Shown here: positions 15,127 through 30,833 of the stretch, piece after piece | How the letters are laid out: each line of letters opens with the position of its first letter | How positions within the stretch are numbered: position 1 is the first letter of the stretch | DNA from: Nitriliruptoraceae bacterium | GTDB lineage: Bacteria > Actinomycetota > Nitriliruptoria > Nitriliruptorales > Nitriliruptoraceae | DNA: 43,391 nucleotides | Assembly (NCBI GenBank): GCA_040903225.1 | Contig: JBBDVU010000031.1 | Coordinates: 1-43,391 of the forward strand | Reading direction: 5' to 3' | Notes under the pieces: model-generated | Seen by the model: the letters and a program-made list of their open reading frames with translations, nothing else | What the model was told of the DNA's origin: nothing | Databases searched by the model: none | Position numbers and translations under genes: made by a program

Positions 15127-15199
15127 GCTCGATGGGGTCTGACGTGAATGGCGTGCCGGCGGCCAGGCGCAATTTGTATCTCACCCTATTCCTGACGGA

Positions 15200-15547
15200 G
15201 TGAGCCGGGATGGCATCCGGCCGCTGCTCGACTGGCTCCATGCGAACCTCGATGAGCCGCTGACGGTTGACGATGTAGCACGGCTCGCCGCCATGAGCCC
15301 CCGGACGCTCGCGCGACGGTTTCGTGACACCACCGGCACGACGCCGATGCGCTGGTTGACGCACCAACGAGTGACACGAGCGCAACAGCTGCTCGAAACG
15401 ACCGACCTGCCTGTCGAGGCCATCGCGCGTCGGGTCGGTCTTGGAACCGCCACCAACCTGCGGACGCATTTCCGTGCTGAAACGTCAATGTCGCCGGCCG
15501 AATATCGCCGTTCCCATCGGGACAGGACACGCCGCTTGGCGAGCTGA
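15200..15547 (+). CDS. AraC/GlxA-type HTH domain only (115 aa); N-terminal sensor domain missing, so a possible gene remnant
   Basis: The entire ORF corresponds to the C-terminal double-HTH of AraC-family regulators (LTVDDVARLAAMSPRTLARRFR...GTATNLRTHFRAETSMSPAEYRR). An in-frame stop lies about 60 nt upstream of the GTG, and only about 70 nt separate it from the preceding gene. Confidence 0.6.
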   Translation: MSRDGIRPLLDWLHANLDEPLTVDDVARLAAMSPRTLARRFRDTTGTTPMRWLTHQRVTRAQQLLETTDLPVEAIARRVGLGTATNLRTHFRAETSMSPAEYRRSHRDRTRRLAS

Positions 15548-15724
15548 TCATCGTTTGGTGTCGGTGGGCGCCCAGCGTCATCTGTTGGGTTGCTGTCGTT
15601 GCACTTTGCGCAGGCTGTGTCTGAGAAACCGTGTTCGATGGAACGACACGTGTATAGTCGTTGTGCCCAAGGAGTCGCTGGTGATGGGGCGGTTACCGTA
15701 CTGCGGCGTCTGTGTGCCCACCGG

Positions 15725-17341
15725 ATGGGTTTGATGCAAGTTCAGGCAGAGTGGCCCCAGGCGCGGATCTTCATCCTTGATGATGAGCCAGCTATCCGTG
15801 ACACGCTGACCCGCATGCTGATGGCGACCGGCTACGAAGCGGTCGAGGTGTTTGCCGCCGCTGACGCTCTGCTCGATGCCTATGGGGTGCAAGCCCCCGA
15901 TTTGTTGCTACTCGACCTGCAGATGCCTGAGGTCGACGGCATCGAAGTACTCCGTGAGATTGGATCGTTGCCGCACGACGCGCGATCGCCAAGCATCGTC
16001 ATGACAAGCGCTCGCCGAGCCGAGGACGTTCATCGGACACTCGAACTCGGAGCGGCGGACTTTCTGCATAAGCCGGTCGAAGCTATCGAACTACTCCTGC
16101 GGGTCCGCCACCAGTTGCGGGAACGTCGCCTCCGCAAAGACCTGGCTGACCACAACCGCCGACTTGAAGAACTTGCTGTGCAACGTGCCGGCGAGCTCGC
16201 GCTGCTGTCACAGGTCCTTGACGACATTCCTGTTGCTGCTGCGGTCCTCGAAGACGATCTGCGACTTCGCTATGCCAATCGGCGGGCACGCGAGCTGTTC
16301 GTCGGCAATCAATTTGATCTGGCGGGTTCGCTGCAGCCGCTCGCCACCAGCAGTGAGCATGTCGCTACCAATGCCGGGACCACCGATTCGAATCTGGCGC
16401 TACCACCTGGCGAGCGCATCGGTGCCTTCCTCGCTGGTGCAATCTCTGTATCACCACGGACGATGGTCTGCCGGTTGACACGGCAAGGTCTGCCAGATAG
16501 GCGGGTCGAGCTAGAAGCTCAGCGTGTTCACGAGGATTTCATTGCTGTCCTAATCCATGACGTCGAGCTTCAGCAGCGAGCACAAGAAGCGCTCCGGCGG
16601 GCACTGGAAGTCGAACAACATGCGAACGACGAGTTACGTTCCGTTGAATCGCTTCGCACCAGCTTCCTGACCGCGGTGTCGCATGAGCTGCGGACACCGC
16701 TGACGGTCGTGTTGGGACTTGCGGAGTCGCTGGAAACGCACGCCAACAAGCTTGATGGCGGTCAGCGCGCCAGCCTTGTCACTCGCCTGCACCAGAACGC
16801 TCGTCGGCTCGCCCGTCTGCTCGATGACTTGCTCGATCTCAACCGCATGGTGGTGGGGCGGCTGGAAGTTGCGTCGACTCGGTGCGACCTGCGTGACCTT
16901 GTCGATGGCGCACTGCGCGACATGGATATCGAGCGTCACGAGCTGACGTTCGACGTGCCGTCTGTCGAGGTGGACGTTGCGGCCGGCCAAATTCGGCGTG
17001 TCGTCAGCAACCTGGTGCGCAACGCCACCGTTCACACCCCGGCAGGCACACCTATTCGGGTGACGGCGAGTGTGCATGGCACGATGGCGCAGCTGCGGGT
17101 CATTGACGAGGGACCCGGCATCGACGACAGTCTGAAAGCGCGCATATTCGAGCCATTCGAACAAGGACCGTCGGCGCCCAGCCATCAGCCAGGAACCGGC
17201 ATCGGATTGAGTCTGGTTCGCGAATTCGTGCAGTTGCATGGCGGCCGCAGCTGGGTCGAAGATACGCCGGGCGGCGGTGCAACGTTCGTTGTGGAGCTAC
17301 CTCGGTTCGACAGGGATCCGGATACGCAGGCGAATGGTTGA
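15725..17341 (+). CDS. Hybrid sensor: N-terminal receiver (REC) domain, PAS-like region, HisKA, HATPase_c
   Basis: REC strings RIFILDDEP...LLLLDLQMPEVDG...KP. H-box SFLTAVSHELRTPLT. N/G boxes (VSNLVRNA, IDEGPGI, GTGIGLS). Start is ATG 15725 or 15734, inside track ORF 15590..17341. Confidence 0.8.
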   Translation: MGLMQVQAEWPQARIFILDDEPAIRDTLTRMLMATGYEAVEVFAAADALLDAYGVQAPDLLLLDLQMPEVDGIEVLREIGSLPHDARSPSIVMTSARRAEDVHRTLELGAADFLHKPVEAIELLLRVRHQLRERRLRKDLADHNRRLEELAVQRAGELALLSQVLDDIPVAAAVLEDDLRLRYANRRARELFVGNQFDLAGSLQPLATSSEHVATNAGTTDSNLALPPGERIGAFLAGAISVSPRTMVCRLTRQGLPDRRVELEAQRVHEDFIAVLIHDVELQQRAQEALRRALEVEQHANDELRSVESLRTSFLTAVSHELRTPLTVVLGLAESLETHANKLDGGQRASLVTRLHQNARRLARLLDDLLDLNRMVVGRLEVASTRCDLRDLVDGALRDMDIERHELTFDVPSVEVDVAAGQIRRVVSNLVRNATVHTPAGTPIRVTASVHGTMAQLRVIDEGPGIDDSLKARIFEPFEQGPSAPSHQPGTGIGLSLVREFVQLHGGRSWVEDTPGGGATFVVELPRFDRDPDTQANG

Positions 17342-17433: not shown

Positions 17434-18570
17434 ATGCGCGACATTTTGGACACCGTTCGAGCTTGGCGGCAGCATGACGACGCGGTCGGGCTGGCAACCG
17501 TTGTCGATGTGCGGAGAAGTGCGCCCCGTCAGCCGGGTGCGGCAATGGCGGTCAGCGCAGCTGGTGAGGTTATCGGCAGCGTGTCGGGTGGGTGCGTCGA
17601 AGGCGCAGTCTTCGACGTTGCGCAACAGGTCATGGCGTCACACCAACCTCAGCTGGTGACCTACGGCATCAGTGACGATGAAGCCATGGCGGTCGGGTTG
17701 ACGTGCGGCGGTGAGATCGAATTGTTCATCGAGCGGCTTGATAGTCGCAGTCGAGCGCAGATCGATGCAGTCGCCGATGCGATTGCGGCGGAAGCGCCGT
17801 TAGCACTTGCAACCGTCATCGCAGGACCGGCCGATATCGCCGCCAAGCTTGCGGTCACTGAAACAGATGTTGTTGGCACGCTCGGCGACGAGGGCTTGGA
17901 TGCCGCCGTCGGCGACGATGCACGCGGCATGCTTGAACAGGGAGCTACTGCCCAGCGACGATATGGCCGCCATGGTGAGCGGCGTCGCGACGAGGTGACC
18001 GTGTTCATCGAGTCGTTCGCGCCACGGCCCCGCATGTACGTGTTCGGTGCCATCGATTTCGCCGCCGCGGTTGCGCGCATCGGCAGCTACCTCGGCTATC
18101 ACGTCACTGTCTGTGATGCACGCGCCGTGTTCGCTACGCGTAAACGTTTTCCGGAAGCCGATGACGTCGTCGTCGAGTGGCCTCATCGGTTCCTGGCTTC
18201 CGCGCCAGTCGACCGGCGAACCACTATTTGTGTGCTCACGCACGACCCCAAGTTCGACGTGCCGGTACTCGAGATCGCGCTGCGTTCTGACGCCAGCTAC
18301 GTCGGCGCGATGGGTTCACGGCGCACCCACGAAGATCGCATGCAGCGCCTGCGCGAGCAAGGGCTGACAGATCGTGAACTGGCCCGGCTGCACTCACCTA
18401 TCGGACTCGATCTTGGCGCCCGTACACCAGAAGAGACGGCGGTTTCGATCGCAGCCGAGATCATCCAGAGCCGCTGGGGCGGGCCGGGTCTTCCCCTGCG
18501 TGCTACGTCAGGCGCCATCCATCGGCATGCCGATCGCGTTCGGTCAGCCGGCGGCGTTCTATCCGCCTGA
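17434..18570 (+). CDS. XdhC/CoxI-family cofactor-insertion accessory protein
   Basis: N-terminal XdhC_CoxI motif (ATVVDVRRSAPRQPGAAMAV...GSVSGGCVEG) and a C-terminal Rossmann-like XdhC_C domain (MYVFGAIDFA...). No xdhAB or cox structural genes are nearby. Confidence 0.8.
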   Translation: MRDILDTVRAWRQHDDAVGLATVVDVRRSAPRQPGAAMAVSAAGEVIGSVSGGCVEGAVFDVAQQVMASHQPQLVTYGISDDEAMAVGLTCGGEIELFIERLDSRSRAQIDAVADAIAAEAPLALATVIAGPADIAAKLAVTETDVVGTLGDEGLDAAVGDDARGMLEQGATAQRRYGRHGERRRDEVTVFIESFAPRPRMYVFGAIDFAAAVARIGSYLGYHVTVCDARAVFATRKRFPEADDVVVEWPHRFLASAPVDRRTTICVLTHDPKFDVPVLEIALRSDASYVGAMGSRRTHEDRMQRLREQGLTDRELARLHSPIGLDLGARTPEETAVSIAAEIIQSRWGGPGLPLRATSGAIHRHADRVRSAGGVLSA

Positions 18571-18610
18571 GCTGCAGCGAGAATCAACGTTAACTGCTAG
18601 ACTAACAGTC

Positions 18611-19090
18611 ATGCGACTTGAACTTGGCAAGCGAGCCGACTACGCGATTCGGGCGGCGGTTGATCTCGCGCGTCATCATGCCGATGGGCGTCGCAAAGCC
18701 CGGGCAATTGCCGACGAAATGAGCATCCCGACGAGCTATGTGCCGCAGATTCTGGCGGAACTTGTTAGGGCTGGCATTGCGCGATCCGTGGCCGGCCCCG
18801 ATGGCGGCTATTCGCTGTCGCAACCACCGGTTGACGTGTCGCTGCTCGACGTCCTCCACGCGGTCGATGGCGACGTCGTATCGACGGACTGTGTCCTGCG
18901 AGGTGGGCCTTGTCGCTGGGAAGGTGTGTGCGCGGTGCATGTGCCGTGGTCCCGCGCGCAGCATGCGTTGCTGGACGTGCTCGCCTCGACCAGCCTTGCC
19001 GACATCGTCAATATTGATCGCCAATTGGACGACGGTTCGTTCGAGCTTCCGCCCGACATCGCGATGCCGTTGAACCCTCCACCGGTGTAA
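18611..19090 (+). CDS. Rrf2-family transcriptional regulator with a three-Cys putative Fe-S site
   Basis: N-terminal winged HTH typical of Rrf2 (MRLELGKRADYAIRAAVDLA...). Cys cluster C-x6-C-x5-C (CVLRGGPCRWEGVC). The start is the internal ATG of track ORF 18374..19090. Confidence 0.8.
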   Translation: MRLELGKRADYAIRAAVDLARHHADGRRKARAIADEMSIPTSYVPQILAELVRAGIARSVAGPDGGYSLSQPPVDVSLLDVLHAVDGDVVSTDCVLRGGPCRWEGVCAVHVPWSRAQHALLDVLASTSLADIVNIDRQLDDGSFELPPDIAMPLNPPPV

Positions 19091-19136
19091 CGCAGGCGTC
19101 CGTACTTGCGCTACGCGGTGGTGTGGGCGTGTCAGC

Positions 19137-20282
19137 TCAGACACGTTCGGCTGCCAGCACACACGCAGGATCGTCGGCGAACACGTCGCCAGTCAACGCG
19201 AACGCGCGCGACCGAGAGCCGCCGCAGACATCGGCGAAGCCACAGGATCCGCAGGCACCGTGGAGTCGCTTCGGATCGCGCAGCATTCGCATCAGCGGTG
19301 CATTCCGGTAGATGTCGAGCAGCGGCTGGCTGCGGACAGACCCTGCAGCGACGGGCAGGAATCCACTTGGATAGACGATGCCGAGGTGGTCGATGAAGAC
19401 GAAGCCGCGTCCGGCATTGATGTCGAGTGGCGGCCGTGCGGCTGGTCGCGCCGCAACCTCGGAGGTATCGGTCAGCGCTCGTAGTTCGGCGTACAGATGG
19501 TGCAGCCGCGATATTGGAGGTCGCGCAATCGCCGACGAGCGCCTGCGGGTCCGTTCGACGGCTATGCGTCGGTAGTGCGGCGCTTCGGTGGTCTTGATGG
19601 CGATGCGGCCAGAGACGTCATGCAGCCAGTGCAGAATCGCTTCGGTCTCGTCGGGGTCGGGCGCATCAATGTTGGCGCCGCGTCCGGTCGGTACCAAGAA
19701 GAACACACTCCACAGCCACGCCTGTGCGTGTTCGACAAGCTGCAGGATTGCTGGCAGTTCGCGTGCGTTGCTTCGCGTGACGGTCGTGTTGATCTGCAGC
19801 CGCAGTCCCGCCTGCCTGACGTCGCGCGCAGCGGTGATTGTGGCGTCGAACACACCGGCGATACCCCGGAACATGTCGTGGGTGGCAGCGACGGCGCCGT
19901 CGAGTGACAGGGAAACCGCACGGGCGCCTGCGGCCTTCGCCTGTGCGATCGATTCGGGCGTGAGACGCGCTGTCACCGACGGTGACTGCGCCATGCTCAA
20001 ACCCCGCTGTGCGCCGTGCGCAAGTAATTCGAAAAGGTCATCGCGTTCGAACGGGTCGCCGCCGGTGAGGACGACCAGCGGCGGGGGTGCGCCGAGGTCA
20101 GCGAGTTCGTCGAGCATCGCCATCCCGTCGGCAGTCGAAAGTTCCCGCGGGTGGCGTTGGTCAACGGCGTCGGCCCGACAATGCTGGCACACGAGCTGGC
20201 ACGCCTTGGTTACCTCCCAGATCACCAGAAATGGTCGTTCGTTGACGTCGTAGCGAACATGCCGGACCGGGATGTCACGCAT
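19137..20282 (-). CDS. Radical SAM enzyme with C-terminal SPASM-like Cys cluster (AhbD/NirJ-like)
   Basis: CxxxCxxC motif (CQLVCQHC) about 30 aa from the N-terminus. C-terminal Cys-rich region (CGSCGFADVCGG...DPAC). Start MRDIPV at 20282 overlaps the upstream stop (ATGCGTGA). Confidence 0.8.
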   Translation of the reverse strand: MRDIPVRHVRYDVNERPFLVIWEVTKACQLVCQHCRADAVDQRHPRELSTADGMAMLDELADLGAPPPLVVLTGGDPFERDDLFELLAHGAQRGLSMAQSPSVTARLTPESIAQAKAAGARAVSLSLDGAVAATHDMFRGIAGVFDATITAARDVRQAGLRLQINTTVTRSNARELPAILQLVEHAQAWLWSVFFLVPTGRGANIDAPDPDETEAILHWLHDVSGRIAIKTTEAPHYRRIAVERTRRRSSAIARPPISRLHHLYAELRALTDTSEVAARPAARPPLDINAGRGFVFIDHLGIVYPSGFLPVAAGSVRSQPLLDIYRNAPLMRMLRDPKRLHGACGSCGFADVCGGSRSRAFALTGDVFADDPACVLAAERV

Positions 20283-21804
20283 GCGGGGTCCGATCGCCGA
20301 GGTGGTCGATGACCTGAAGCACGGCGCGTTCGGCGCTGCGGAGGCAATTCGCCAGCCCAGGGCCGTCGAACGCTGCCCCGGCGAGAACGACCCCTGGCCG
20401 GTGTACGCCGAGGCTGTTGCGAGCTGCCTGGATTCGCTGGCTGTGGCCAATCTCGTTGACGGGAAGGGTGTGGGTCCAGCGGTGCACCGCAACTTGTTCT
20501 GGTGTGGCGCGCAGACCGGTGATGGCGGACAACTCGCCATGGAGCCGGTCGGTCACCTCCGCATCGGAAAGATCGTTGGCTCGGGTGTCACCGAACCGAC
20601 CAGTCGACATCCGAACCAGGAACTGCGGCGGCAGATCGAGGTGCGGCCACTTGGCGCTGAGAAATGTGGCCGACTTCAGCATGCCGCCAAAGTTCGACGG
20701 AAGCATGATCCCGGAGGCGTCGAAGGCCGACAGAGATTCGACTGCTGCCTGCGGGTACGCAACGACCACGCACGTGACCGACGACGTCGGACAGCGACCG
20801 AGTGTGGTTGGGATGTCGGTGACGTCGGCAAGCATTCGTGCTGCCGATGCCGCGCCTGTTGCGATGACGACGGCGGCGAACGTCTCGGTTGCCGAATGCG
20901 GAGTCGACGTCGGGGCACCCGTCGGGCCAACGATCTGGTAGCTGCCACCGGCCGTCTTGACGATTGCCTGTACGGGCTGGCCCAAACGGACGTCAGTGCC
21001 ACCCGCCAGTTGCTCGATCACCCGTTGCAGACCGGACACTGCCGTGGCGAAACCCGGCACGTCGGCTGCGCTGCCCGGATGCACCGGCGATGGTCGCCGC
21101 CGCGATCGCCGCAACGTTGCGGCGAGGACGGACCGGTTCGCTGTGAGCTGATCGACCAACTGGGGTGCGCAGCTGCGTGCCTCCAAACGGAAAATGTCGG
21201 CGCCGTGGAGATTGCCCAGCAAGGGATCGACAATGCGCTGTGCCAACTGCCGACCGAACCGTTCGGTAACAAGCTGGCCGACCGACGTTTGATCGGTGAT
21301 GTGGCTGCGTGTGCGTACGAGTTCGGTCGCCGCCCTGAGCAGGCCCGTGGGCGACAGGATCCGGGATGATGCGACCGGCAGCAGCCGGGTCGGTCCGGCC
21401 GGCGTGACGCCATGGGGAAGCCGCCGCAGCGTGACCGCCGGTTGTCCGGCGATTTCGCCAGGAGGTATCCAACCGCTGCTGCCGGTCCCGGTGGGCACGC
21501 CGATCCAGGTGCGCAACCGCCGAGCCCGAACGATGTCGTTGGAACACGCGGTGAAAAGTTGCGGCATGCCGGCAGCGGCAAATATGGCTTCGGCCCCGAG
21601 TTCGACGGCAACGCCAGCCGTGACGTTGACACTTCGCACCTGGCCACCGATGCGGCCAGATGCCTCGAACACCACCGGGGTGTAGCCGCGATCGGCAAGC
21701 AGGGCTGCAGTTGCAATACCGGTGACGCCGGCGCCAATGACCGCGATGCGATGGTCAGGCGCCAGTCCTGGCGTGGATGAACGTTGGTCTACTTGTCCTG
21801 GCAC
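20275..21804 (-). CDS. HemY-type FAD-dependent (copro/proto)porphyrinogen oxidase-like protein
   Basis: N-terminal dinucleotide fold IAVIGAGVTGIATA...FEASGRIGG. Mid-protein VGQLVTERFGRQLAQRIVDPLLGNLHGAD and a C-terminal LAGAAFDGPGLANC, all typical of HemY/CgoX. Confidence 0.7.
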   Translation of the reverse strand: MPGQVDQRSSTPGLAPDHRIAVIGAGVTGIATAALLADRGYTPVVFEASGRIGGQVRSVNVTAGVAVELGAEAIFAAAGMPQLFTACSNDIVRARRLRTWIGVPTGTGSSGWIPPGEIAGQPAVTLRRLPHGVTPAGPTRLLPVASSRILSPTGLLRAATELVRTRSHITDQTSVGQLVTERFGRQLAQRIVDPLLGNLHGADIFRLEARSCAPQLVDQLTANRSVLAATLRRSRRRPSPVHPGSAADVPGFATAVSGLQRVIEQLAGGTDVRLGQPVQAIVKTAGGSYQIVGPTGAPTSTPHSATETFAAVVIATGAASAARMLADVTDIPTTLGRCPTSSVTCVVVAYPQAAVESLSAFDASGIMLPSNFGGMLKSATFLSAKWPHLDLPPQFLVRMSTGRFGDTRANDLSDAEVTDRLHGELSAITGLRATPEQVAVHRWTHTLPVNEIGHSQRIQAARNSLGVHRPGVVLAGAAFDGPGLANCLRSAERAVLQVIDHLGDRTPHA

Positions 21805-21813
21805 GACAGCGGT

Positions 21814-22209
21814 CTATGACGCTGGGACGAATACGAGTTCCATGCCGGCATCTCGATGTCCTGGCACCGAGCACCAGCCGATCACCGGTTCGCTGATGGG
21901 GCCGATGGTTATCGTCGCGGCCCGGCCGGGACGGATCATGCCGCTGTCGACGCTGTCGGTCACCAGGTCGTGCACGATGCCGCCCTCGTTGACCAGTTGC
22001 AGCGTCGTCGGCTGAGTCGCCGAGATCGCGACCTCGTCAGGTTCGAACCGGATGTCATCGAGAATGATGACGACGGCGTCATCGGGTGCCTTGCTAGCAT
22101 CGGGTTCGAGATCGGGTGCGCAGGCGATGATCGCGATACTGAAGGTGGATGCCACGGCCACCTGGGCCGCCGAGCGAAAGCGGAACGATGCCGGGGTTGC
22201 CATGTTCAT
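21814..22209 (-). CDS. Lipoprotein cupredoxin (type 1 blue copper protein)
   Basis: Signal peptide with lipobox (SIAIIAC). Type 1 Cu ligand pattern: His (IVHDL) ... C-x2-GH-x4-M (CSVPGHRDAGM). ATG 22209 is preceded by GAGG at 7 nt; TTG 22233 is an alternative start. Confidence 0.75.
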   Translation of the reverse strand: MNMATPASFRFRSAAQVAVASTFSIAIIACAPDLEPDASKAPDDAVVIILDDIRFEPDEVAISATQPTTLQLVNEGGIVHDLVTDSVDSGMIRPGRAATITIGPISEPVIGWCSVPGHRDAGMELVFVPAS

Positions 22210-22287
22210 GTTCCTGCCTCGTAGGCGCCTCAAGGTTCGTTGCAGCCGGTCCGGCTTGCCAAGCGTGAATCGAATGTGTAGTGTACC

Positions 22288-22320
22288 ACTAACATTTAGT
22301 CCAATGACAAACGTTTATTA
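22288..22320. promoter_or_regulatory. AT-rich quasi-palindromic operator candidate (site 1) in the divergent cupredoxin/ctaA intergenic region
   Basis: ACTAACATTTAGTCCAATGACAAACGTTTATTA. It shares TAACATTnAGT and ACAAACGTT blocks, at the same (or +1) spacing, with 28134-28166. Half-sites TAACATT and AACGTT(A) are inverted repeats. Confidence 0.55.
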
Positions 22321-22349
22321 ATTGCACCACCCGCATGATCGGCTGTTAG

Positions 22350-23483
22350 ATGCCAACTCATCAGCGACACGGTCGGCGCGTGACGTTCGTCCGCCGTCTC
22401 GCGGTAGCGACGTCGATCGGGACGCTGGTGCTGATCGCTATGGGTGGTGGGGTCAGGGCAACCGATTCCGGGCTTGCCTGCCCCGACTGGCCGGCCTGCT
22501 ACGGCATGTGGATTCCGCCAGCGGACTTCAATATGTGGATGGAGCACAGTCATCGGCTGTGGGCGGGTGTGATCGGGATTGCGGTAGCGTTGCTGATGGC
22601 GTTGACTTTTGTTGATCGCAAGGCGGCACCCGCGCCATGGCGACTCAGTGCGCTCGCGGGCCTGCTGGTCATCGTACAAGCAGGACTCGGTGCAGTGGTC
22701 GTGCTCCTGCATCTGCGTGCCGGCCTGGTGACGTCGCACCTGGGTATGTCGCTTGTCATCGTCGGTGCGCTCATCGCGGTTGCCGTTCGGGCGGGCACCA
22801 CTACCCCGGATGCAGGCGCCCAATTTGTGGGCACAGCATGGAATGCGCGTACCGTGCGGTTCGGATCGATTGCGGCGGCAGCGGTATTCGTGCAAGCCCT
22901 GCTCGGTGGTCAAGCCACCGGCCGTGGCGCTGCCTATGTCTTCAACGCTGTGCCGATCTGGTTGGCGACCGATGCCTGGTCGGGTCACATCCGAGAGATC
23001 CTGCACGTGACCCACCGGGCGGGTGGCTATCTGGTCGCTGCCGCCGTCGTCGCATTCGCGGTGCATGCCGCGCGACGCAGTCGCCGTCTGGCGGAGGTTG
23101 CCGACGCCTCGGCCAACCGCGCGATCAGCCCGGCGAGTTCGGACAGCATGAGCCTAAAGCGTGCTGCGCGCATCGCCCGGAACACCAGATTCTGGGCAAT
23201 CATCGCCGCCGGTCTCGTGGTGGTCCAGGTGGGATTAGGGCTTGCCAACGTGTTGACACAGGCTATGGTTCCGGTGGCCGTCGGACACTTGTCAGTCGCA
23301 AGCTGGCTGTGGGCAGTGCTGGTGCTGATCGTCGTCCGGGAGCGACACGCGCGGGATCTCGAATATGCATGGGGCGGGATTGAGCTCGGTCCGAACATTG
23401 CAGTTCACGGCGGATCTGGTCGTGCCCCGGTTTTGGCATCGTCGTCGGCATCCGAGCCATCGACTTCGGAGGTGACCGTATGA
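22350..23483 (+). CDS. ctaA: Haem A synthase (COX15/CtaA)
   Basis: GGGVRATDSGLACPDWPACYG motif plus conserved His in TM helices (EHSHR). Polytopic. Confidence 0.85.
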   Translation: MPTHQRHGRRVTFVRRLAVATSIGTLVLIAMGGGVRATDSGLACPDWPACYGMWIPPADFNMWMEHSHRLWAGVIGIAVALLMALTFVDRKAAPAPWRLSALAGLLVIVQAGLGAVVVLLHLRAGLVTSHLGMSLVIVGALIAVAVRAGTTTPDAGAQFVGTAWNARTVRFGSIAAAAVFVQALLGGQATGRGAAYVFNAVPIWLATDAWSGHIREILHVTHRAGGYLVAAAVVAFAVHAARRSRRLAEVADASANRAISPASSDSMSLKRAARIARNTRFWAIIAAGLVVVQVGLGLANVLTQAMVPVAVGHLSVASWLWAVLVLIVVRERHARDLEYAWGGIELGPNIAVHGGSGRAPVLASSSASEPSTSEVTV

Positions 23484-23632
23484 GTGATGTGAACGAACGT
23501 CATCCGTGGCAGCAGCGCGCGCTCGACAACATCTGGTTGCTGCTGGCAATCAGTGTCGTCGTGCCGGGTTTGCTGTACCTCGGGTGGGGACTGTGGGAAC
23601 TAGCTGAGCTTCCAGTGTGGGGCGGAAGGTAG
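23480..23632 (+). CDS. Unannotated 50-codon single-TM ORF; candidate small oxidase subunit (ba3 subunit IIa analogue)
   Basis: Below the track's size cut-off. ATGA overlap with the ctaA stop. Translation: MSDVNERHPWQQRALDNIWLLLAISVVVPGLLYLGWGLWELAELPVWGGR. Its stop lies within the GGAG Shine-Dalgarno sequence of the subunit II gene. Confidence 0.55.
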   Translation: MSDVNERHPWQQRALDNIWLLLAISVVVPGLLYLGWGLWELAELPVWGGR

Positions 23633-23641
23633 GAGACCGAC

Positions 23642-24217
23642 GTGGACACCGATCACACCACGCACGACGAATCCGCGCACAGCAAGGCGCAGTCGACGTT
23701 GCTGCCTCCGCCAGACCGATGGTGGCAACGTCTCGGGCCCGATGAGAGACGCTGGCTCACGATCGCCTTTGTCTGGTGCTTGATCTTGTTCAGTGGCATG
23801 TACATCTGGCTCGGTATCGGCGATCAACAGACGCCGATCGAGTCGTATCGTGTGGATCCGGTTGTTTTTGCGGCGGAAGTCCAGGATTTCATCGAAGAGC
23901 ATCAGGTTGATGAAATCAGCGGTGCGGCGATCGTCGCACCGCCACCCGGTAGTGATGTCTATCTTCAGGCCAACCAGTTCGCGTTCCGGCCGGTGTTGCA
24001 ACTGCAGCGCGGCGAAACCTATCGATTGCTCGTTTCGTCAACCGACGTGCAGCACGGTTTGTCGCTCCAGCCGGTCAACCTCAATTTCCAAGTCCTGCCC
24101 GGGTATCTGTACGTGATTCGCATCACGCCCACAGAAACCGGGGAATTTCCGATCATCTGCAACGAGTTCTGCGGCCTTGGTCATCACGTGATGACCGGGT
24201 TGATCGTCGTCGACTAG
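23642..24217 (+). CDS. Haem-copper oxidase subunit II, ba3 (B-family) type, with intact CuA site
   Basis: One TM helix plus a cupredoxin domain with CuA ligands: H (DVQHG), CNEFCGLGHHVM. The length (191 aa) and the string EFPIICNEFCGLGH closely resemble Thermus ba3 subunit II (YRIICNQYCGLGH). Confidence 0.85.
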   Translation: MDTDHTTHDESAHSKAQSTLLPPPDRWWQRLGPDERRWLTIAFVWCLILFSGMYIWLGIGDQQTPIESYRVDPVVFAAEVQDFIEEHQVDEISGAAIVAPPPGSDVYLQANQFAFRPVLQLQRGETYRLLVSSTDVQHGLSLQPVNLNFQVLPGYLYVIRITPTETGEFPIICNEFCGLGHHVMTGLIVVD

Positions 24218-24259
24218 ACCGCGCAGGCGTATCGACGCCGGATATAGGGAGGCAAACAC

Positions 24260-26011
24260 GTGACCGCCATCGCGGAGCCAACGGCATTCCGGACATGTAA
24301 TGTCACCGGATTTCGGATCCACAAGGACGGCCAGCGCCATGCGCTCGTCAACGCTGTCGCGGCCGTGGTGCTGCTGGCGATCGGCGGCACATGGGCCATA
24401 TTGATCGCACTGCAGCGCCAGGGCCTACCAATCAGTGAGGACTGGTGGTACCGGCTGCTTGCCAGCCACGGCGCGACCATGCTGCTGTTCTGGATCTTGT
24501 TCTTCGAAGTCGCAGCCTTGTACTGGGGCTCGACGATGCTGCTCAATGCGCGAATGCTCGCGTCGAAGCTCGCCTGGGCCAACTTTGCGATGATGGCCCT
24601 TGGTGTTGCGCTCGCGCAATGGGCGATGTTGACCGGCCGGGCCACCGTCATGTTCACGGCCTATCCGCCATTGACGGCGCACCCGCTCTACTACGCCGGC
24701 ATCCTCATGTTCGCGGTTGGTGTGCTGATCGCCTGCTGCATCTTTTTTGCCAACATCATCGTTGCCAAGCGCGAGAAGACCTATGAAGGGTCGCTGCCGC
24801 TGGTGGTGTACGGGCTGGTCGCTGCTGCGGTCATCGCGGTGTATGCGCTCGGGACCGGAGCGGTGGCCTATGGGATGCTGTTCCTCGACTCCGTCGGGTT
24901 GATGGACGGTGTCGACCCGGCGTTGTACCGACTGTTTTTCTGGGGTATCGGCCATGGCGCGCAGCAAGTGAACCTGGCCGCGATGGTGGCCGTCTGGTAC
25001 GCGCTGATCGCGTTGACGCTGGGTGGACGGCCGGTCAACGAAGGACTGAGCCGATTCGCGTTCCTGCTCTACATCGCGTTCATTCACCTTGGCGCCGTGC
25101 ACCACCTGCTCGTTGACCCGGGCCTTGGCACCAGCCACCGCATCATGAACACGAGCTATTTCCTGTACCTCGCGGTGCTGGCGAGTCTCATCCATGCGTT
25201 CTCGGTTCCTGCGGCAATGGAAGTTGCCCAACGTGAACGCGGAATCGGCCACGGAATGTTCGGCTGGCTCAAGAAGGCGCCGTGGCGCGAACCAGGATTT
25301 TCGGCGCTGGTGCTCTCGGTGGTGTACTTCGGGTTCATTGCGGGCGTGACCGGGGTGCTCATGGGCACGATGCAGCTCAACATGATCATCCACAACACGC
25401 TGTTCGTGGTCGGTCACTTCCACGCCACCGTAGTTTCCGGGACGACGCTCGCGTTCATGGGCATCTCGTACTACATCGTGCCGCTGTTGAGCCAGCGCAA
25501 GTTGTCATCCCCGCGGATGGCGCAACTGCAGACGTATGTATTCGCTGGAGGCTTGGCGATACTGACCCTGGGGATGTTGGTCGCTGGTCAGCGCGGTGTG
25601 CCGCGTCGGGTGGCGGACCTGGAATACACCGGATCGCCGCTCAGTGTTGAGCTGTTCGGTGCGACGACACCGACGCCAATGCTCATGGGGATCATCTCGG
25701 TTGGTGCCGTGCTCGCGGTCGTCGGTGGCGTCATGTTTGTCTGGAACATGGTGGCGACACTGTTCTGGGGCGAGCGGACCGAACGTGGCGACGAAGGGCT
25801 CGCTATCGCCTACTCCAACATTGCTGGTCGTGACAGTCGCGGCATTGCGGTGCAGACGCACCCCGACCTGGTGGCGCAAGGCATCAAGGGTCGATGGGCG
25901 CAATTCGAAGCGCCGGGTACGTACCTGATCGTGCTGATTTTCTTGGCCTGGTTCGTGGTGATGTATGTCGCCGCCCATCTCAATCTGTCGCGCGCCTGGC
26001 CGGTCGGATAG
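24260..26011 (+). CDS. Haem-copper oxidase superfamily subunit I, ba3-like (B-family related), lacking the canonical cross-linked Tyr
   Basis: Alignable by eye along its length with Thermus ba3 subunit I. Ligand His present: H70, H232, H281/H282, H386/H388. Motif GHGAQQV replaces GHPIVYF. Confidence 0.85.
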   Translation: MTAIAEPTAFRTCNVTGFRIHKDGQRHALVNAVAAVVLLAIGGTWAILIALQRQGLPISEDWWYRLLASHGATMLLFWILFFEVAALYWGSTMLLNARMLASKLAWANFAMMALGVALAQWAMLTGRATVMFTAYPPLTAHPLYYAGILMFAVGVLIACCIFFANIIVAKREKTYEGSLPLVVYGLVAAAVIAVYALGTGAVAYGMLFLDSVGLMDGVDPALYRLFFWGIGHGAQQVNLAAMVAVWYALIALTLGGRPVNEGLSRFAFLLYIAFIHLGAVHHLLVDPGLGTSHRIMNTSYFLYLAVLASLIHAFSVPAAMEVAQRERGIGHGMFGWLKKAPWREPGFSALVLSVVYFGFIAGVTGVLMGTMQLNMIIHNTLFVVGHFHATVVSGTTLAFMGISYYIVPLLSQRKLSSPRMAQLQTYVFAGGLAILTLGMLVAGQRGVPRRVADLEYTGSPLSVELFGATTPTPMLMGIISVGAVLAVVGGVMFVWNMVATLFWGERTERGDEGLAIAYSNIAGRDSRGIAVQTHPDLVAQGIKGRWAQFEAPGTYLIVLIFLAWFVVMYVAAHLNLSRAWPVG

Positions 26012-26014
26012 GTC

Positions 26015-26950
26015 ATGGCAATGTCTTCGGCAGCGGCAGAGACGGCGGTTGTCACCAGCAGTGCAGCCTCGGCTGCAACGTGGCGCGACGCGGTCGCCGA
26101 CTATACGAGCCTGACCAAGCCGCGGATCATCGAGCTGCTGCTGGTGACGACGGTGCCAGCGATGTTCGTCGCCGCTCGCGGTTGGCCCGGGACCGGGCTG
26201 CTGGTCGCAACACTCGCGGGTGGCGCGCTCGTGTCGGGTTCGGCGCATGCGTTCAACATGGTTATCGACCGCGACATCGACGGCATGATGGCGCGGACCC
26301 GCAACCGCCCGATGCCATCGGGCAGGATCTCGGTACAGTCGGCGCTGCAGTTTGCGACGGTGCTGCTTGTGCTGGGCACGACAATACTTGCGGCATTCGC
26401 GGGCATGCTGGCCACGGCGCTCACCGTTGTCGCCTGGGCCTGGTATGTCGTCATCTACACGCTCCTGCTGAAGCGAAGAACACCGCAGAACATCGTGATC
26501 GGGGGTGTCGCCGGCGCGCTCCCGCCAATGATCGGCTGGGCCGCCGTGACCGGATCGATCGCCATGCCGGCCGTCATCATGTTCGCTGTTGTGGTGTTGT
26601 GGACCCCCACACACTTTTGGGCGCTTGCGATCGGCACCGGGCAGGACTACGCAAATGCCAACGTGCCGATGCTGCCGGTACTCCGGGGAGCGCATGCCGC
26701 CGGGAGGCAGGCGGCGGTCTACGCCGCGCTGACGGTGGCGGCGTCGTTCACCTTGTTAGCCGCTGGCTTGTCTAGCCCGATTTTCGCTGTGTTGCTGGTG
26801 TTGTTCGGCACGGTCTTTGTTGGTTATGCCCTGTTGTTTGCCAGGTCGATTTCGTGCAAGCGCGCCTGGGTGCTGTTCCACCTGTCCAACGGCTACCTGG
26901 CGCTGGTATTTGCCGCGATCGCGGCGGTCGGTCTGCTCCACGAATGGTGA
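26015..26950 (+). CDS. ctaB: Protohaem IX farnesyltransferase (haem O synthase)
   Basis: UbiA-family with CtaB strings (GSAHAFNMVIDRDIDGMMARTRNRP; TPQNIVIGG; LWTPTHFWALA). Confidence 0.9.
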   Translation: MAMSSAAAETAVVTSSAASAATWRDAVADYTSLTKPRIIELLLVTTVPAMFVAARGWPGTGLLVATLAGGALVSGSAHAFNMVIDRDIDGMMARTRNRPMPSGRISVQSALQFATVLLVLGTTILAAFAGMLATALTVVAWAWYVVIYTLLLKRRTPQNIVIGGVAGALPPMIGWAAVTGSIAMPAVIMFAVVVLWTPTHFWALAIGTGQDYANANVPMLPVLRGAHAAGRQAAVYAALTVAASFTLLAAGLSSPIFAVLLVLFGTVFVGYALLFARSISCKRAWVLFHLSNGYLALVFAAIAAVGLLHEW

Positions 26951-26954
26951 CATC

Positions 26955-28163
26955 GTGAACGGGCGTCGCGTCAGCTTGGCGCTGACGATCGGTATCGCGG
27001 TTGTGCTCGTCAACGGATTGGCAGCCACGCCGGCGCACGCGCACACGCGGACCGCGGAAACGACCAATCTTGCCAGTGTCGTCACCAACGCGCCTGAACT
27101 CGAGGGTGTCACCTTCACGGTCTATACCGGGGGCTTTCTTATTGGGCTCACGAACGCGACGGATCGCGACATCATCGTGGCCGGATACGACGGTGAGCCG
27201 TACCTGCGCATCGGGCCCGACGGTGCGTTCGAGAACCGGCACTCGGCCGCGACCTATCTCAACCGGGAGCGTTACGGTGATGTGGCGGTCCCACCGCGTG
27301 TCGACCCTGCGAGCGACCCAGACTGGATCCGGGTCAGTGCACAACCATCGTGGGTGTGGCACGACCACCGCACCCATTGGATGTCACCGCAGCCACCGCG
27401 TTTCGTTGAAGCGTCGGTGGTGACCCGCCTGCTGATGCGTGCACGGCTCGTGGGGCCGATCGGATCGGGCGGAGAGCAACAGGGTGCGTTTCAGGAGTGG
27501 CAGATCCCGTTCGAGCACGATCAACATGCCTATGTCATTAGCGGCGAGTTGCGCTGGATCGACGCGCCACCAGTATGGCCGTGGTACCTGCTGGCAGCAG
27601 CGTTTGTTGCGATGATGTTGGGTGTGAACCGTGCGGTGTCCCGCCATGAGATGATCGGGCCCCAGCGATGGTTGAACCCGCTCGCCAACCTCGTCGTGGC
27701 GGTGGCTGTCGTAAACGCCATTCACCTAGTTGATGATCTGGCAGCATGGCCTGGCGACCTGCTCGACGAACTATTTGGCCTGCTGCACACGCTGCTGTTT
27801 CTCACCGCTGGCCTGGTCGGCGCGTTCTGGGCCCGTTATGCCCGTGACGGGCGGGTTTTGGCACTCGGCATCGCCTCTGGTGCCCTGGTGTATCACCAGG
27901 GTCTGGTGCACCTGCCGATGCTGTACGCATCACAGTTTCCAACACTGTGGCCACCCGAGCTCGTTCGATTCAGTGTTGCACTGGGACTCATGCAAGCCGT
28001 GCCTGTGGCATGGTTTGTCATTGGCCACCTGCGCAGCCACCGTTCCGATGCCAACAACGGCCTGCAGGCAGATGTGAGCCAGCCGACGGTGCCGGTGGCG
28101 TCGAAAGCGGACCAGCCGCACATCAACTTGGATAGTAACATTAAGTATGGTACAAAACGTTAG
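26955..28163 (+). CDS. Exported His-rich domain fused to a polytopic membrane domain; function unknown (candidate copper-handling or assembly factor)
   Basis: GTG 26955 lies 4 nt after the ctaB stop. Signal peptide ends ...ATPAHA, followed by HTRT. Motif WVWHDHRTHWM (nt 27357-27383). Five or six C-terminal TM helices. Confidence 0.6.
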   Translation: MNGRRVSLALTIGIAVVLVNGLAATPAHAHTRTAETTNLASVVTNAPELEGVTFTVYTGGFLIGLTNATDRDIIVAGYDGEPYLRIGPDGAFENRHSAATYLNRERYGDVAVPPRVDPASDPDWIRVSAQPSWVWHDHRTHWMSPQPPRFVEASVVTRLLMRARLVGPIGSGGEQQGAFQEWQIPFEHDQHAYVISGELRWIDAPPVWPWYLLAAAFVAMMLGVNRAVSRHEMIGPQRWLNPLANLVVAVAVVNAIHLVDDLAAWPGDLLDELFGLLHTLLFLTAGLVGAFWARYARDGRVLALGIASGALVYHQGLVHLPMLYASQFPTLWPPELVRFSVALGLMQAVPVAWFVIGHLRSHRSDANNGLQADVSQPTVPVASKADQPHINLDSNIKYGTKR

Positions 28164-28166
28164 TAT
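28134..28166. promoter_or_regulatory. AT-rich quasi-palindromic operator candidate (site 2), upstream of the second cupredoxin gene
   Basis: AGTAACATTAAGTATGGTACAAAACGTTAGTAT. Inverted half-sites are TAACATT (28136-28142) and AACGTTA (28156-28162), with an inner GTAnnnTAC. Overlaps the last codons of the upstream gene and lies about 70-95 nt before ATG 28231. Confidence 0.55.
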
Positions 28167-28230
28167 CAGCGCTACAACGCCATCACATCAGGTGGTGATC
28201 AGCGCCACGGATTCGCAAAGGAGAATATTC

Positions 28231-28596
28231 ATGCGCACGTCCAGAGTCCTCGTGATCGCGATCGCCGCTGTGGTGATCGCCGCGTGTGGAGGGGGTGACG
28301 ATGCGCCCGCCGCAGCCCCTGCGAGCGGCGCCATCAGTGTCGAAGCCGGCGACTTGTACTACGAACCGACGAGCCTGACTGCTGCGGCAGGTGAGATTCA
28401 GATCACCATCGAGAACACCGGCGCGGTCGAACACGATGTCGTCATCGAAGAAGCGGGTGACGTAGAGGTCGTCCATGCAGAGGCCGGAGAAACCGTAACT
28501 GGCACCGTCACGCTCGAAGCAGGCACCTACACGTTCTACTGCGCGATTCCAGGCCACCGTGCTGCCGGCATGGAGGGGACGCTCACCGTCCAATGA
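28231..28596 (+). CDS. Lipoprotein cupredoxin (type 1 blue copper protein), paralogue of 21814..22209
   Basis: AAGGAG Shine-Dalgarno sequence upstream of the ATG. Signal plus lipobox (VVIAAC). Cu ligands: H (VEHDV) ... CAIPGHRAAGM. Confidence 0.8.
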   Translation: MRTSRVLVIAIAAVVIAACGGGDDAPAAAPASGAISVEAGDLYYEPTSLTAAAGEIQITIENTGAVEHDVVIEEAGDVEVVHAEAGETVTGTVTLEAGTYTFYCAIPGHRAAGMEGTLTVQ

Positions 28597-28663
28597 TGGC
28601 GGCTAACACTTGAACCGTCACACCGGGTCGGTGACCAGCACCGGCCCGGATGAGGGGCCCAAC

Positions 28664-29407
28664 ATGACTACCACGGTGAACACGCGTTCGGCTCCCAGCC
28701 CCGCGACGGTCCATCGCGCGCTCGCAAGCCCCGTGCGTGGACGCATCATCGACACGCTCGTCGACTCGTCACCGTGCGACATTCAGGAGTTGGCGGCAGC
28801 GATGGGCTTGCACCCCAACACCATTCGTAGTCACCTGGTAATTCTGGAAGAAGCCGCGTTGGTCGACTACACGCACGCTGCACCGGCCGGTAGAGGCCGC
28901 CCACGCCGCCTCTACCGCGCGATGGCTGCCCGTTGGACCGAGGATGGCGCCTTCGGCTACGAACTGCTCGCGTCGATCCTCGCTGGTGTCGTGGCATCCG
29001 AGTCGAGCGATCCAAGCCGGCCGACCGAACAACGTGCGGCCGAGTGGGGCCGTCGCCTCGTTCAAGAACACCGGATCACGCCTGGCCCGCCCGCTTCTAC
29101 GGCGCGTGCGCTCGATCACGTCACCGTGATGCTGGATCGACTGGGTTTCGAACCAGAGGTCGACCTTGCCGCGCACGGCGGCCCAACACTGCGTCTGTAT
29201 CAGTGCCCATTCCGGACCGTCGCTCGCGACAACCCCAGAGTCGCCTGTGCGGTCCACCTCGGGTTGACGCGAGGTGCGCTCGAAGCTCTTGGCGGGGGGT
29301 TGCAGATCCGTCGCTTTGAACCGCACCTTGGCGCCGGCCCATGCGTGACCATGTTCGGTACCCGAAGGTCCGCGCCAAGTAACGGTGTGGCCGGCGAGGC
29401 GCGCTGA
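28664..29407 (+). CDS. ArsR-type winged-HTH regulator with extended C-terminal Cys/His-containing domain
   Basis: HRALASPVRGRIIDTL...IQELAAAMGLHPNTIRSHLVILEEAALV is an ArsR/SmtB-type HTH. The C-terminal domain carries CPF...ACAVHLG...GPC. An earlier start (28610) is possible. Confidence 0.75.
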   Translation: MTTTVNTRSAPSPATVHRALASPVRGRIIDTLVDSSPCDIQELAAAMGLHPNTIRSHLVILEEAALVDYTHAAPAGRGRPRRLYRAMAARWTEDGAFGYELLASILAGVVASESSDPSRPTEQRAAEWGRRLVQEHRITPGPPASTARALDHVTVMLDRLGFEPEVDLAAHGGPTLRLYQCPFRTVARDNPRVACAVHLGLTRGALEALGGGLQIRRFEPHLGAGPCVTMFGTRRSAPSNGVAGEAR

Positions 29408-29408
29408 C

Positions 29409-30686: not shown

Positions 30687-30833
30687 CCCCGGCCGCCTCC
30701 CGGCTGACATACCAATCTCGCTCTGCCAACGGGGCACGGCGAACGCAGGTGTCCATGCTGCCATTGCACGTACGCTGTTTGCGCCTTTCAATGACTATTT
30801 GCAGCGCTATCTGACGGGGGCAAGGCAGAATCC

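Follow-up and report, generated by a model that had tools for sequence, protein, structure and literature searches.

What is the function of two similar AT-rich islands that stand in front of the two cupredoxin genes in a respiratory gene cluster of a Nitriliruptoraceae bacterium, and which protein recognizes them? The cluster is found on contig JBBDVU010000031.1 of assembly GCA_040903225.1, and the stretch of 43,391 nucleotides that was analyzed is referred to here as the window. A sequence-only reading of this DNA had proposed that the islands are a shared operator for a dimeric regulator, and had named an ArsR-like protein and a nearby Rrf2-family protein as candidates. In this report, we demonstrate that the islands belong to a set of four 27-bp dyads distributed over three promoter regions. 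The proposal of a shared operator is supported by the dyad matrix, by conservation in relatives, and by the predicted placement of the dyads on promoters, and the Rrf2 protein is favored as the candidate reader.

The coordinates and letters of site 1 (22288-22320, ACTAACATTTAGTCCAATGACAAACGTTTATTA) and site 2 (28134-28166, AGTAACATTAAGTATGGTACAAAACGTTAGTAT) were found to be as first described. The two 33-mers are identical at 20 of 33 positions in register on recounting, and the 5' ends of the half-sites are separated by 20 nt at both. The window is 63% GC, and the lowest-GC 33-mers of all 43 kb are site 1, site 2, and an element upstream of the Rrf2 gene (24, 27, and 36%). Exact matches to TAACATT-N13-AACGTT in the window are limited to sites 1 and 2. 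With up to two mismatches there are three matches, the third being the reverse strand of site 2, versus 0.21 expected. The similarity might be accidental, since AT-rich DNA has more accidental identity and 30% would be expected here from composition. Against this, the probability of 20/33 is 2.8e-4 from a binomial calculation and 1.2e-4 from 200,000 shuffles, matrices trained on other genomes recover the sites independently, and the sites are kept at orthologous positions. Because the scans of the window and of the Nitriliruptorales loci recover the sites, chance similarity is already refuted, and its probability is negligible.

The loci for these scans were collected by searching one genome per species with an alignment of P380, the His-rich membrane protein encoded after ctaB. 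This search provided 28 loci from the Nitriliruptorales/Euzebyales (L009-L036) and 52 from other actinobacterial lineages; the best of all these encodes a protein 58% identical to that of the window. The DNA examined per genome consisted of partial loci of 5-43 kb. Only relatives at 50-56% protein identity were used for training, and the window was left out. A 31-nt matrix was constructed from six sites (L010, L011, L012, L018, L019, and L027), with the closest relative also omitted. When applied to the window, this matrix returned site 2, site 1 (20.4 bits), and the minus strand of 18584-18614 (17.8 bits), relative to a maximum of 12.2 bits over 100 Markov shuffles. In approximately 489 kb of Nitriliruptorales loci, both strands, no match of 12 bits or more lies outside three classes of place: the divergent region between cupredoxin 1 and ctaA, the region upstream of the cupredoxin 2/ArsR-like/M433 genes (M433 being a 433-aa membrane protein), and the Rrf2 promoter, where the offset to the start of the Rrf2 alignment is always 12 nt. 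A motif scattered over unrelated loci would have spoken against a shared operator; the matches are confined to these three classes.

A symmetrised 27-nt matrix was then made from 24 first-pass sites of the relatives. In the window it recovers the four dyads listed in Table 1, with a next best score of 6.7 bits. In 200 shuffles the mean maximum was 7.1 bits, the 95th percentile 11.7, and the highest value 17.8. The dyad at 22272-22298 is thus only marginally supported within the window, since its score of 18.0 bits barely exceeds the highest shuffled value. This fourth site, offset by 18 bp from site 1, had been missed in the sequence-only reading. The weaker element noted there at the Rrf2 start (18586-18610) is now a statistically backed third site. 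In 929 kb of control loci from other actinobacteria, one borderline match of at least 18 bits was obtained. An iterated matrix, which included the sites of the window itself and became looser at every round, is used for the description of columns and carries no significance. Covariance models from Rfam, searched over 18000-31000 with E up to 1, gave two sub-threshold matches, both away from the sites. A metagenome scan with AACNNTWAGTNNNNNACWAANNGTT is uninformative on the breadth of the regulon: among the matches listed (at least 120), 110 of 120 are in DNA of less than 50% GC, and five high-GC matches among those listed are unrelated, three being copies of one sequence beside a transposase-like open reading frame (ORF).

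The order-wide consensus is TAACGTTTAGT-N5-ACTAAACGTTA, a 27-bp dyad of 11-5-11 architecture. The conserved columns are mirrored (AAC by GTT, TTAGT by ACTAA), and beyond TAAC and GTTA the columns are uninformative. The unit is the 27-bp dyad rather than the TAACATT/AACGTTA arms alone. The inner TTAGT/ACTAA blocks are approximately 10 bp apart, centre to centre, or one helical turn, and the outer AAC/GTT blocks approximately 22 bp. This spacing would suit coverage by a winged-helix dimer. Sites 1a and 1b share the palindrome ACTAACATTTAGT, and paired dyads 16-21 bp apart are found by the looser iterated model in the cupredoxin 1/ctaA region of many relatives. Two other descriptions of the motif were considered and rejected. 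A pair of 13-bp palindromes, ACTAA-N3-TTAGT, at a spacing of 19 bp would require bases outside TAAC/GTTA (matrix positions 1-3 and 30-31) that are unconserved, and since those columns carry no information the single dyad is favored. The iron box of IdeR/DtxR, with its TTAG/CTAA words, agrees at 6 of 19 positions when aligned by hand centre to centre.

Table 1. Positions of the dyads, putative promoters, and associated genes (window coordinates unless a locus is named)
Feature	Coordinates	Strand	Description
Site 1a dyad	22272-22298		GAATGTGTAGT-GTACC-ACTAACATTTA; 18.0 bits; block kept in L004
Site 1b dyad (site 1 of the sequence-only reading)	22290-22316		TAACATTTAGT-CCAAT-GACAAACGTTT; 25.0 bits; ortholog at L004 3126-3151
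Site 2 dyad	28136-28162		TAACATTAAGT-ATGGT-ACAAAACGTTA; 33.2 bits (symmetrised matrix), 39.9 bits (6-site matrix)
Site 3 dyad, Rrf2 promoter	18585-18611		CAACGTTAACT-GCTAG-ACTAACAGTCA; 22.0 bits; last base is the A of the Rrf2 ATG
Cupredoxin 1 operon promoter (putative)	22280-22310	-	-10 TACACT, 22285 to 22280; -35 TTGTCA, 22310 to 22305; 19-nt spacer
Cupredoxin 2 operon promoter (putative)	28128-28156	+	-35 TTGGAT, 28128-28133; 17-nt spacer; -10-like TACAAA, 28151-28156
Rrf2 -10 TAGACT (putative)	18598-18603	+	7 nt ahead of the ATG at 18611
Rrf2-family regulator	18611-19090	+	159 aa; PF02082 E = 2e-32; TIGR00738 109.3 bits (cut-off 73.3)
Putative target operon 1	19137-22212	-	cupredoxin 1, 21814-22212; protoporphyrinogen-oxidase-family flavoprotein, 20275-21804; TIGR04053 radical SAM/SPASM ORF, 19137-20540
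Putative target operon 2, first part	22350-28163	+	ctaA, 22350-23483; 50-aa membrane ORF, 23480-23632; COX2, 23642-24217
Putative target operon 2, remainder		+	predicted ba3-type COX1, 24260-26011; ctaB (heme O synthase), 26015-26950; His-rich P380, about 26955-28163
Putative target operon 3	28231-30686	+	cupredoxin 2 (lipoprotein-like N-terminus), 28231-28596; ArsR-like, 28664-29407; 433-aa membrane protein (M433), 29385-30686
GnTGnTGTnAGAACyCCCACC word	L005 ~1530-1560; L017 ~6370-6400; L028 ~6290-6320	-	upstream of cupredoxin 2 in a clade lacking the dyads

The closest relative is represented by three short contigs of sample SRR21836767: L001 (COX1 to M433), L004 (radical SAM to COX1), and L091 (XdhC, Rrf2). 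The site 2 dyad is identical to its L001 counterpart, AGTAACATTAAGTCAGATACAAAACGTTTG, at 23 of 27 positions. The arms are the same, the mismatches being confined to the N5 spacer or the outermost base, and the flank upstream agrees at 16 of 45. Sites 1a and 1b together agree with L004 at 35 of 45 positions (flanks, 52-59%), and site 3 agrees with L091 at 23 of 27. Overall, the non-coding flanks of the sites are 36-64% identical to those of the closest relative. The sequence-only reading placed site 2 over the last codons of the His-rich gene. An ORF at 26817-28163 does stop inside site 2 (TAG at 28161-28163); the overlap is not conserved. Because the L001 gene stops 38 nt ahead of the site 2 counterpart, the tail of the window ORF over site 2 is regarded as a non-conserved read-through.

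Across the order, the element ahead of the cupredoxin 2 or ArsR-like gene reads cTTGnnT-N3/4-TAACnATWAGTnnnGTACAAAACGTT. The register of site 3 at the Rrf2 start is repeated in L015 and L018 (21-23 bits) and, more weakly, in L019, L010, L092, and L093. Two loci of more distant relatives retain mainly the inner core: L007, with TTAGTGCAAGACTAA and TTAGCGAACCGCTAA, and L093, with ACCCTTAG-N7-CTAAGGGT. Footprinting by comparison with relatives thus finds the motif kept upstream of orthologous genes, both in the closest relative and across the order. The named CtaA and Rrf2 homologs come from Nitriliruptoraceae, Egicoccus, and Egibacteraceae. The gene order mapped with tblastn is Rrf2, (radical SAM, oxidase-like), and cupredoxin 1, divergent from ctaA, small ORF, COX2, COX1, ctaB, and P380, followed by cupredoxin 2, (ArsR-like), and M433, with variations between loci. 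In the window, the context described earlier is correct, with the cupredoxin 1 operon on the minus strand divergent from ctaA, and the cupredoxin 2, ArsR-like, and membrane protein genes after site 2. These results establish the existence, specificity, symmetry, conservation, and placement of the dyad sites.

Two other conserved blocks were noted near cupredoxin 2. Directly 3' of the site 2 dyad, GTATCAGCGCTACAACGCCA (28163-28182) is 19/20 identical to L001, a closer agreement than that of the dyad. Around AGCGCT the block is partly dyad-symmetric (GT-N3-AGCGCT-N3-AC), and it is unconserved in more distant relatives. It may be another operator, perhaps one for the ArsR-like protein, or an element at the transcript 5' end. 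In a clade of 72-75% GC that lacks the dyads, a different word, roughly GnTGnTGTnAGAACyCCCACC, is conserved upstream of cupredoxin 2, which suggests that this gene is under a different control element there.

The conserved hexamers of the relatives suggest that the sites lie on promoters. In eight of nine sites of the site 2 type, TTGnnn is located exactly 17 nt upstream of the invariant TACAAA, and therefore the spacer, the -10, and the expected transcription start of the cupredoxin 2 operon would all lie under the site 2 dyad. The putative hexamers of the cupredoxin 1 promoter recur as the same words at the same spacing in L004, and dyads 1a and 1b lie across them. At the Rrf2 gene, TAnnnT precedes the ATG by 6-7 nt in most orthologs. 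Because TAGACT sits 7 nt from the ATG in the window, the Rrf2 mRNA is probably leaderless. The words TTTAC/TTGAC within AACGTTKAC were dropped as an Rrf2 -35, being 3 nt from the -10. Since the dyads overlap these putative core promoter elements, the sites would be operators for which repression is the most likely mode of action.

The conserved blocks might instead be promoter elements alone, with no separate operator. AAC followed approximately 18 nt later by CGTT resembles the -35 and -10 words of extracytoplasmic function (ECF) sigma factors, and all sites of the site 2 type are oriented toward the downstream gene, as AAC-N18-CGTT would require. An ECF-type promoter was nevertheless rejected. 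The stretch between the arms (TWAGT, GTAC) is as well conserved as the arms, the motif is dyad-symmetric, and a separate TTGnnn box lies at a fixed 17 nt from TACAAA. In addition, the motif does not always face the downstream gene in the same way: its orientation is variable in the divergent regions and the opposite one at the Rrf2 promoter, and because it differs between promoters the motif is better described as an operator than as a promoter consensus. We regard the promoter-only explanation as very improbable.

The question of which protein reads the dyads is best approached from the two regulators encoded in the window, both of which had been named earlier as candidates; the comparative evidence favors the Rrf2 protein and places the ArsR-like protein as a rival. 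We consider it reasonably probable, on the evidence of genomic comparison, that the reader is the adjacent Rrf2 protein, which has three cysteines and a histidine in the pattern C-X6-C-X5-C-X2-H. Residues C94, C101, C107, and H110, and the positions of the helix-turn-helix (HTH), are invariant in the alignment of 10 orthologs (alignment A2). The protein is a probable iron-sulfur (Fe-S) sensor with a presumed cluster. It matches the superfamily model only, and falls below every cut-off of the curated models for IscR, NsrR, RirA, CymR, and the Xanthomonas-type suf regulator. The promoter of its gene bears a dyad whose register is constant in the window, L091, L015, and L018, with the weaker examples given above, and the gene adjoins the target region in most loci. 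Locus L092, which was reached via the Rrf2 protein and not via the cox cluster, has sites at all three places. The Rrf2 protein is 93% identical in the closest relative, far above the neighboring proteins (CtaA, 71%; P380, 69%; ArsR-like, 67%), and the 11-5-11 geometry is typical of operators in this family.

The alternative is that the dyads are read by the ArsR-like protein, which would autoregulate the cupredoxin 2/ArsR-like/M433 operon and also control the ctaA region and the Rrf2 gene. This protein of 247 aa has two domains, an N-terminal HTH_20/HTH_5 domain and a C-terminal one that contains Cys, and it weakly resembles SufR; ArsR-type operators are also dyads of roughly 26 bp. The top sites found with the 6-site matrix (44-60 bits) are all directly ahead of an operon that contains the ArsR-like gene (window, L001, L010, L011, L012, L013, L018, L019, and L027; the contig of L015 ends too early), and L092 is similar, at 37.3 bits with the symmetric matrix. 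In these partial genomes, the distribution of the motif does not follow the gene closely: the two occur together in 11 of 14 gene-bearing loci, 6 loci have the motif only, and 3 have the gene only. Dyads are present in L007, L009, L016, L024, L026, and L093, where there is no ArsR-like gene within 17-21 kb. The gene is present in L005, L017, and L034, where no site reaches 12 bits, and in L025 the cupredoxin 2/ArsR-like operon lacks a site while the cupredoxin 1 region has one. The ArsR-like protein is also only 33-48% identical across loci whose operator is nearly identical, and its distant homologs in L002 and L003 carry a different upstream element. Against the NF033788 model for metalloregulators of the ArsR/SmtB family it scored 36.9 bits, and the cut-off of 55 was not reached. 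On balance, we find the ArsR-like protein an unlikely reader.

The L002 and L003 homologs (41-42% identity) were also considered as a source of the motif and set aside as uninformative, since they share TATTCAC...CGTATAAT instead. In both loci (L002 5950-6000; L003 5950-6000), the promoter reads TATTCAC...CGTATAATTC, the start codon follows approximately 10 nt after the -10, and the transcript looks leaderless. The gene that follows encodes a protein of approximately 217 aa, with a faint hemerythrin match in L002 only, and the neighborhoods include GAF-histidine kinases and universal stress proteins. These neighborhoods hint at a role of the ArsR-like family related to O2 or nitric oxide (NO).

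Locus L093, from Nitriliruptoraceae bacterium ZYF776, likewise speaks for the Rrf2 protein. In this locus a multicopper oxidase gene stands divergent from Rrf2, cupredoxin 2, and M433, the dyads are variants, and the 20 kb contain no ArsR-like gene.

A number of observations weigh against the Rrf2 protein as the reader. The strongest and best-conserved sites directly precede operons that hold the ArsR-like gene, and ArsR-like autoregulation would fit these equally well. The statement that no ArsR-like gene is nearby concerns partial loci, not whole genomes. The Rrf2 promoters of L007, L014, L016, and L027 score weakly or nil. The L005 organism encodes an Rrf2 of 65% identity whose recognition helix is unchanged, and yet there is no recognizable motif at its cox cluster; its Rrf2 promoter bears only a GC-shifted palindrome, CCTTGAG-N7-CTCAGGG. 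The co-occurrence of the motif with Rrf2 is therefore imperfect, and the explanation that the motif-less clade (L005, L017, and L028) lacks Rrf2 is contradicted by the Rrf2 gene of the L005 organism, approximately 100 kb away. Lastly, a simple sigma-70 scanner reported no canonical promoter in any of the three regions, consistent with non-canonical hexamers. The scanner demands T at position 6 of the -10 and so reports nothing at the cupredoxin 2 promoter. Because it was blank, the hexamers given in Table 1 are taken from cross-species conservation.

It might also be argued that the reader is encoded elsewhere, or that the sites are common to two regulators or contested between them, with Rrf2 and the ArsR-like gene of the locus being only targets. 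Just 5-43 kb was examined per genome, and both regulator genes are downstream of sites, as targets would be. However, Rrf2 is tightly linked to the target region across most loci and very strongly conserved, the 11-5-11 geometry is typical of an Rrf2 operator, and the loci share no further DNA-binding gene with any consistency. A reader of this kind is quite unlikely.

With Rrf2 as the candidate reader, a mechanism can be proposed. The Rrf2 dimer would bind the four dyads over the three promoter regions. Because the dyads cover the putative promoters from -35 to +1, RNA polymerase would be blocked by the bound protein, which would repress its own gene and a complete alternative terminal oxidase module. 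Release would be expected when the presumed Fe-S cluster changes state; the precedents for a signal in this family are O2 or redox state, NO, and the status of Fe-S clusters or iron.

The dyads of the divergent region would act on ctaA and the oxidase operon no less than on cupredoxin 1. The COX1 protein is closest to the ba3-type oxidase of Thermus thermophilus (1EHK, E = 1e-46, versus 4e-11 for the caa3 enzyme, 2YEV) and far under the cut-offs of the A-family models. By sequence, the oxidase is thus predicted to belong to the B-family (ba3-type) and not to be the usual actinobacterial aa3 enzyme. COX2 is short (191 aa) with a CuA-type motif, and is preceded by the 50-aa ORF, a single helix, which presumably mirrors the arrangement of subunit IIa in ba3 oxidases. 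The ctaB product is a heme O synthase (343 bits; cut-off, 246) and that of ctaA is a COX15/CtaA protein. The putative controlled set is an alternative terminal oxidase module composed of cofactor synthesis, oxidase subunits, two cupredoxins, P380, M433, and a second regulator. The two cupredoxins could act as electron donors to the oxidase.

P380 is a membrane protein of 402 aa with the motifs WHDHRTHW and YHQGLVHL, and no Pfam or NCBIfam family was matched. Relatives were found as 511 stretches in species-representative genomes. The best 80 of the 511 are all from Actinomycetota, including Geodermatophilaceae, Frankia, Micromonospora-type genera, and Acidimicrobiales (L037-L088). P380 looks like an unnamed, widespread family and may help to insert a cofactor into the oxidase.

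The longest ORFs of the radical SAM and oxidase-like genes (19137-21804, minus strand) overlap by 266 nt. Since the TIGR04053 match begins at residue 98, the true start of the radical SAM protein is probably near 20250. TIGR04053 is a relative of the heme b synthase AhbD, and its gene, together with the neighbor of the protoporphyrinogen-oxidase family, suggests a side branch of heme synthesis in the regulon.

The Rrf2 gene is convergent with the radical SAM gene. Directly upstream of Rrf2 is an XdhC/CoxI-family gene (window 17434-18570; L091 1113-2249), and in L007 (1-8400) a whole molybdenum hydroxylase (CO-dehydrogenase-like) cluster lies beside Rrf2 on the opposite strand, with no dyad found there. 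Upstream of the XdhC-Rrf2 pair in the window (13147-17341) are genes for a GGDEF diguanylate cyclase of 659 aa and for a 583-aa hybrid histidine kinase that carries a receiver domain; neither showed a link to the regulon. The Rrf2 homolog P0347 (L089 10001-10624, 207 aa) is annotated approximately 40 codons too long; the conserved start MELSLGRRADY and a -10, TACGCT, lie inside the annotated coding region.

The outcome of this analysis is an operator sequence, four mapped sites, a small and coherent regulon that would be that of an Rrf2 regulator, and a candidate reader. It would place a predicted B-family (ba3-type) oxidase, the cupredoxin carriers, and the synthesis of heme A under a probable iron-sulfur sensor. 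Control over the building of an alternative terminal oxidase is known in few model organisms only, and the host class consists of poorly studied actinobacteria from saline and alkaline habitats. We tentatively suggest, as a possibility that is itself doubtful, that an uncharacterized Rrf2 subfamily with IscR-like Cys3-His ligands serves the Nitriliruptoria as the master switch for a self-contained module of alternative respiration. The parts of this module would be heme O and heme A synthesis, additional enzymes of heme synthesis, the ba3-type oxidase, cupredoxin carriers, and a second-tier ArsR/SufR-like regulator. Experiments may be feasible, since ZYF776 (GCA_009720505.1), apparently a cultured strain to judge by its name, has a variant arrangement.

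The IscR proteins of Escherichia coli and Thermincola potens are among the nearest known systems, and the structure of the latter (4CIC, E = 5.5e-16) is the best sequence match to the window Rrf2 in the PDB. The ligands of IscR are C92, C98, C104, and H107, a Cys3-His-like pattern that resembles that of the window protein, and its type 1 operator is approximately 25 bp with ACTA/TAGT words (GACTA-www-TAGTC). Autoregulation would be a further point in common. Unlike IscR, the window protein has one more residue between its first two cysteines and is below the IscR cut-offs (79.8 versus 207.55 bits and 61.2 versus 275 bits), the TTAGT/ACTAA blocks point the opposite way about the dyad centre, and neither the window nor the loci yielded isc or suf genes. 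The NsrR proteins of Streptomyces coelicolor and Escherichia coli are Rrf2-family members with three Cys ligands, dyad operators, and a small regulon that includes their own gene. The window protein differs in scoring 31.9 bits against the NsrR cut-off of 182 (PDB 5N07, E = 1.4e-5), and the targets seen include no hmp-type gene for NO detoxification. For the ArsR-like protein, the HTH_20/HTH_5 domain and the Cys-bearing C-terminal domain are the SufR-type layout. Its score against SufR is 24.1 bits versus 178.8, there are no suf genes nearby, and, as described above for the partial loci, the presence of the motif does not track its gene.

RsrR, an Rrf2-family [2Fe-2S] redox sensor from Streptomyces venezuelae with class 1 operators, holds its cluster with a non-standard residue set, unlike the C-X6-C-X5-C-X2-H pattern of the window protein. 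Its structure (PDB 6HSD) matches the window Rrf2 in sequence at E = 5e-12. An 11-3-11 inverted repeat is characteristic of full-length sites in the Rrf2 family, and two sites are adjacent in the divergent rsrR promoter region, with likely autoregulation and occlusion of RNA polymerase (PMC5015018). The long inverted repeat, the paired full sites in a divergent region beside the regulator gene, and the likely mode of action are similar to those proposed here. The spacer is 3 nt in RsrR sites versus 5 nt here, and the likeness concerns geometry; recognition sequences are stressed to differ between members of the Rrf2 family (PMC5015018). The targets also differ, being NAD(P)H and glutamine metabolism for RsrR and an oxidase module here.

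In gene context, the window Rrf2 resembles ctaR (AFE_3141) of Acidithiobacillus ferrooxidans, an Rrf2-family gene clustered with ctaA and ctaB that adjoins an operon for a cupredoxin (rusticyanin) and a heme-copper oxidase (PMC2754497). That system is from a proteobacterium and has an aa3-type oxidase. The role of CtaR in oxidase biogenesis was hypothesized only, "iron responsive" is an annotation, and no operator, regulon, or binding is described there (PMC2754497). A literature search for Rrf2 with ctaA, aa3, heme A synthase, or CtaR, in which most subscription journals were outside the coverage, found no such operator or regulon defined. If the assignment is correct, the dyads would be the first operator and regulon defined for the CtaR idea, hitherto proposed only in Acidithiobacillus, and Rrf2 sensors would have been recruited in two phyla to tie a redox, O2, NO, or Fe-S signal to the biogenesis of heme-copper oxidases. 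An Fe-S Rrf2 dimer that acts on a long dyad and is autoregulated is an established principle (IscR, NsrR, and RsrR), and the system proposed here is an extension of that principle rather than a new one.

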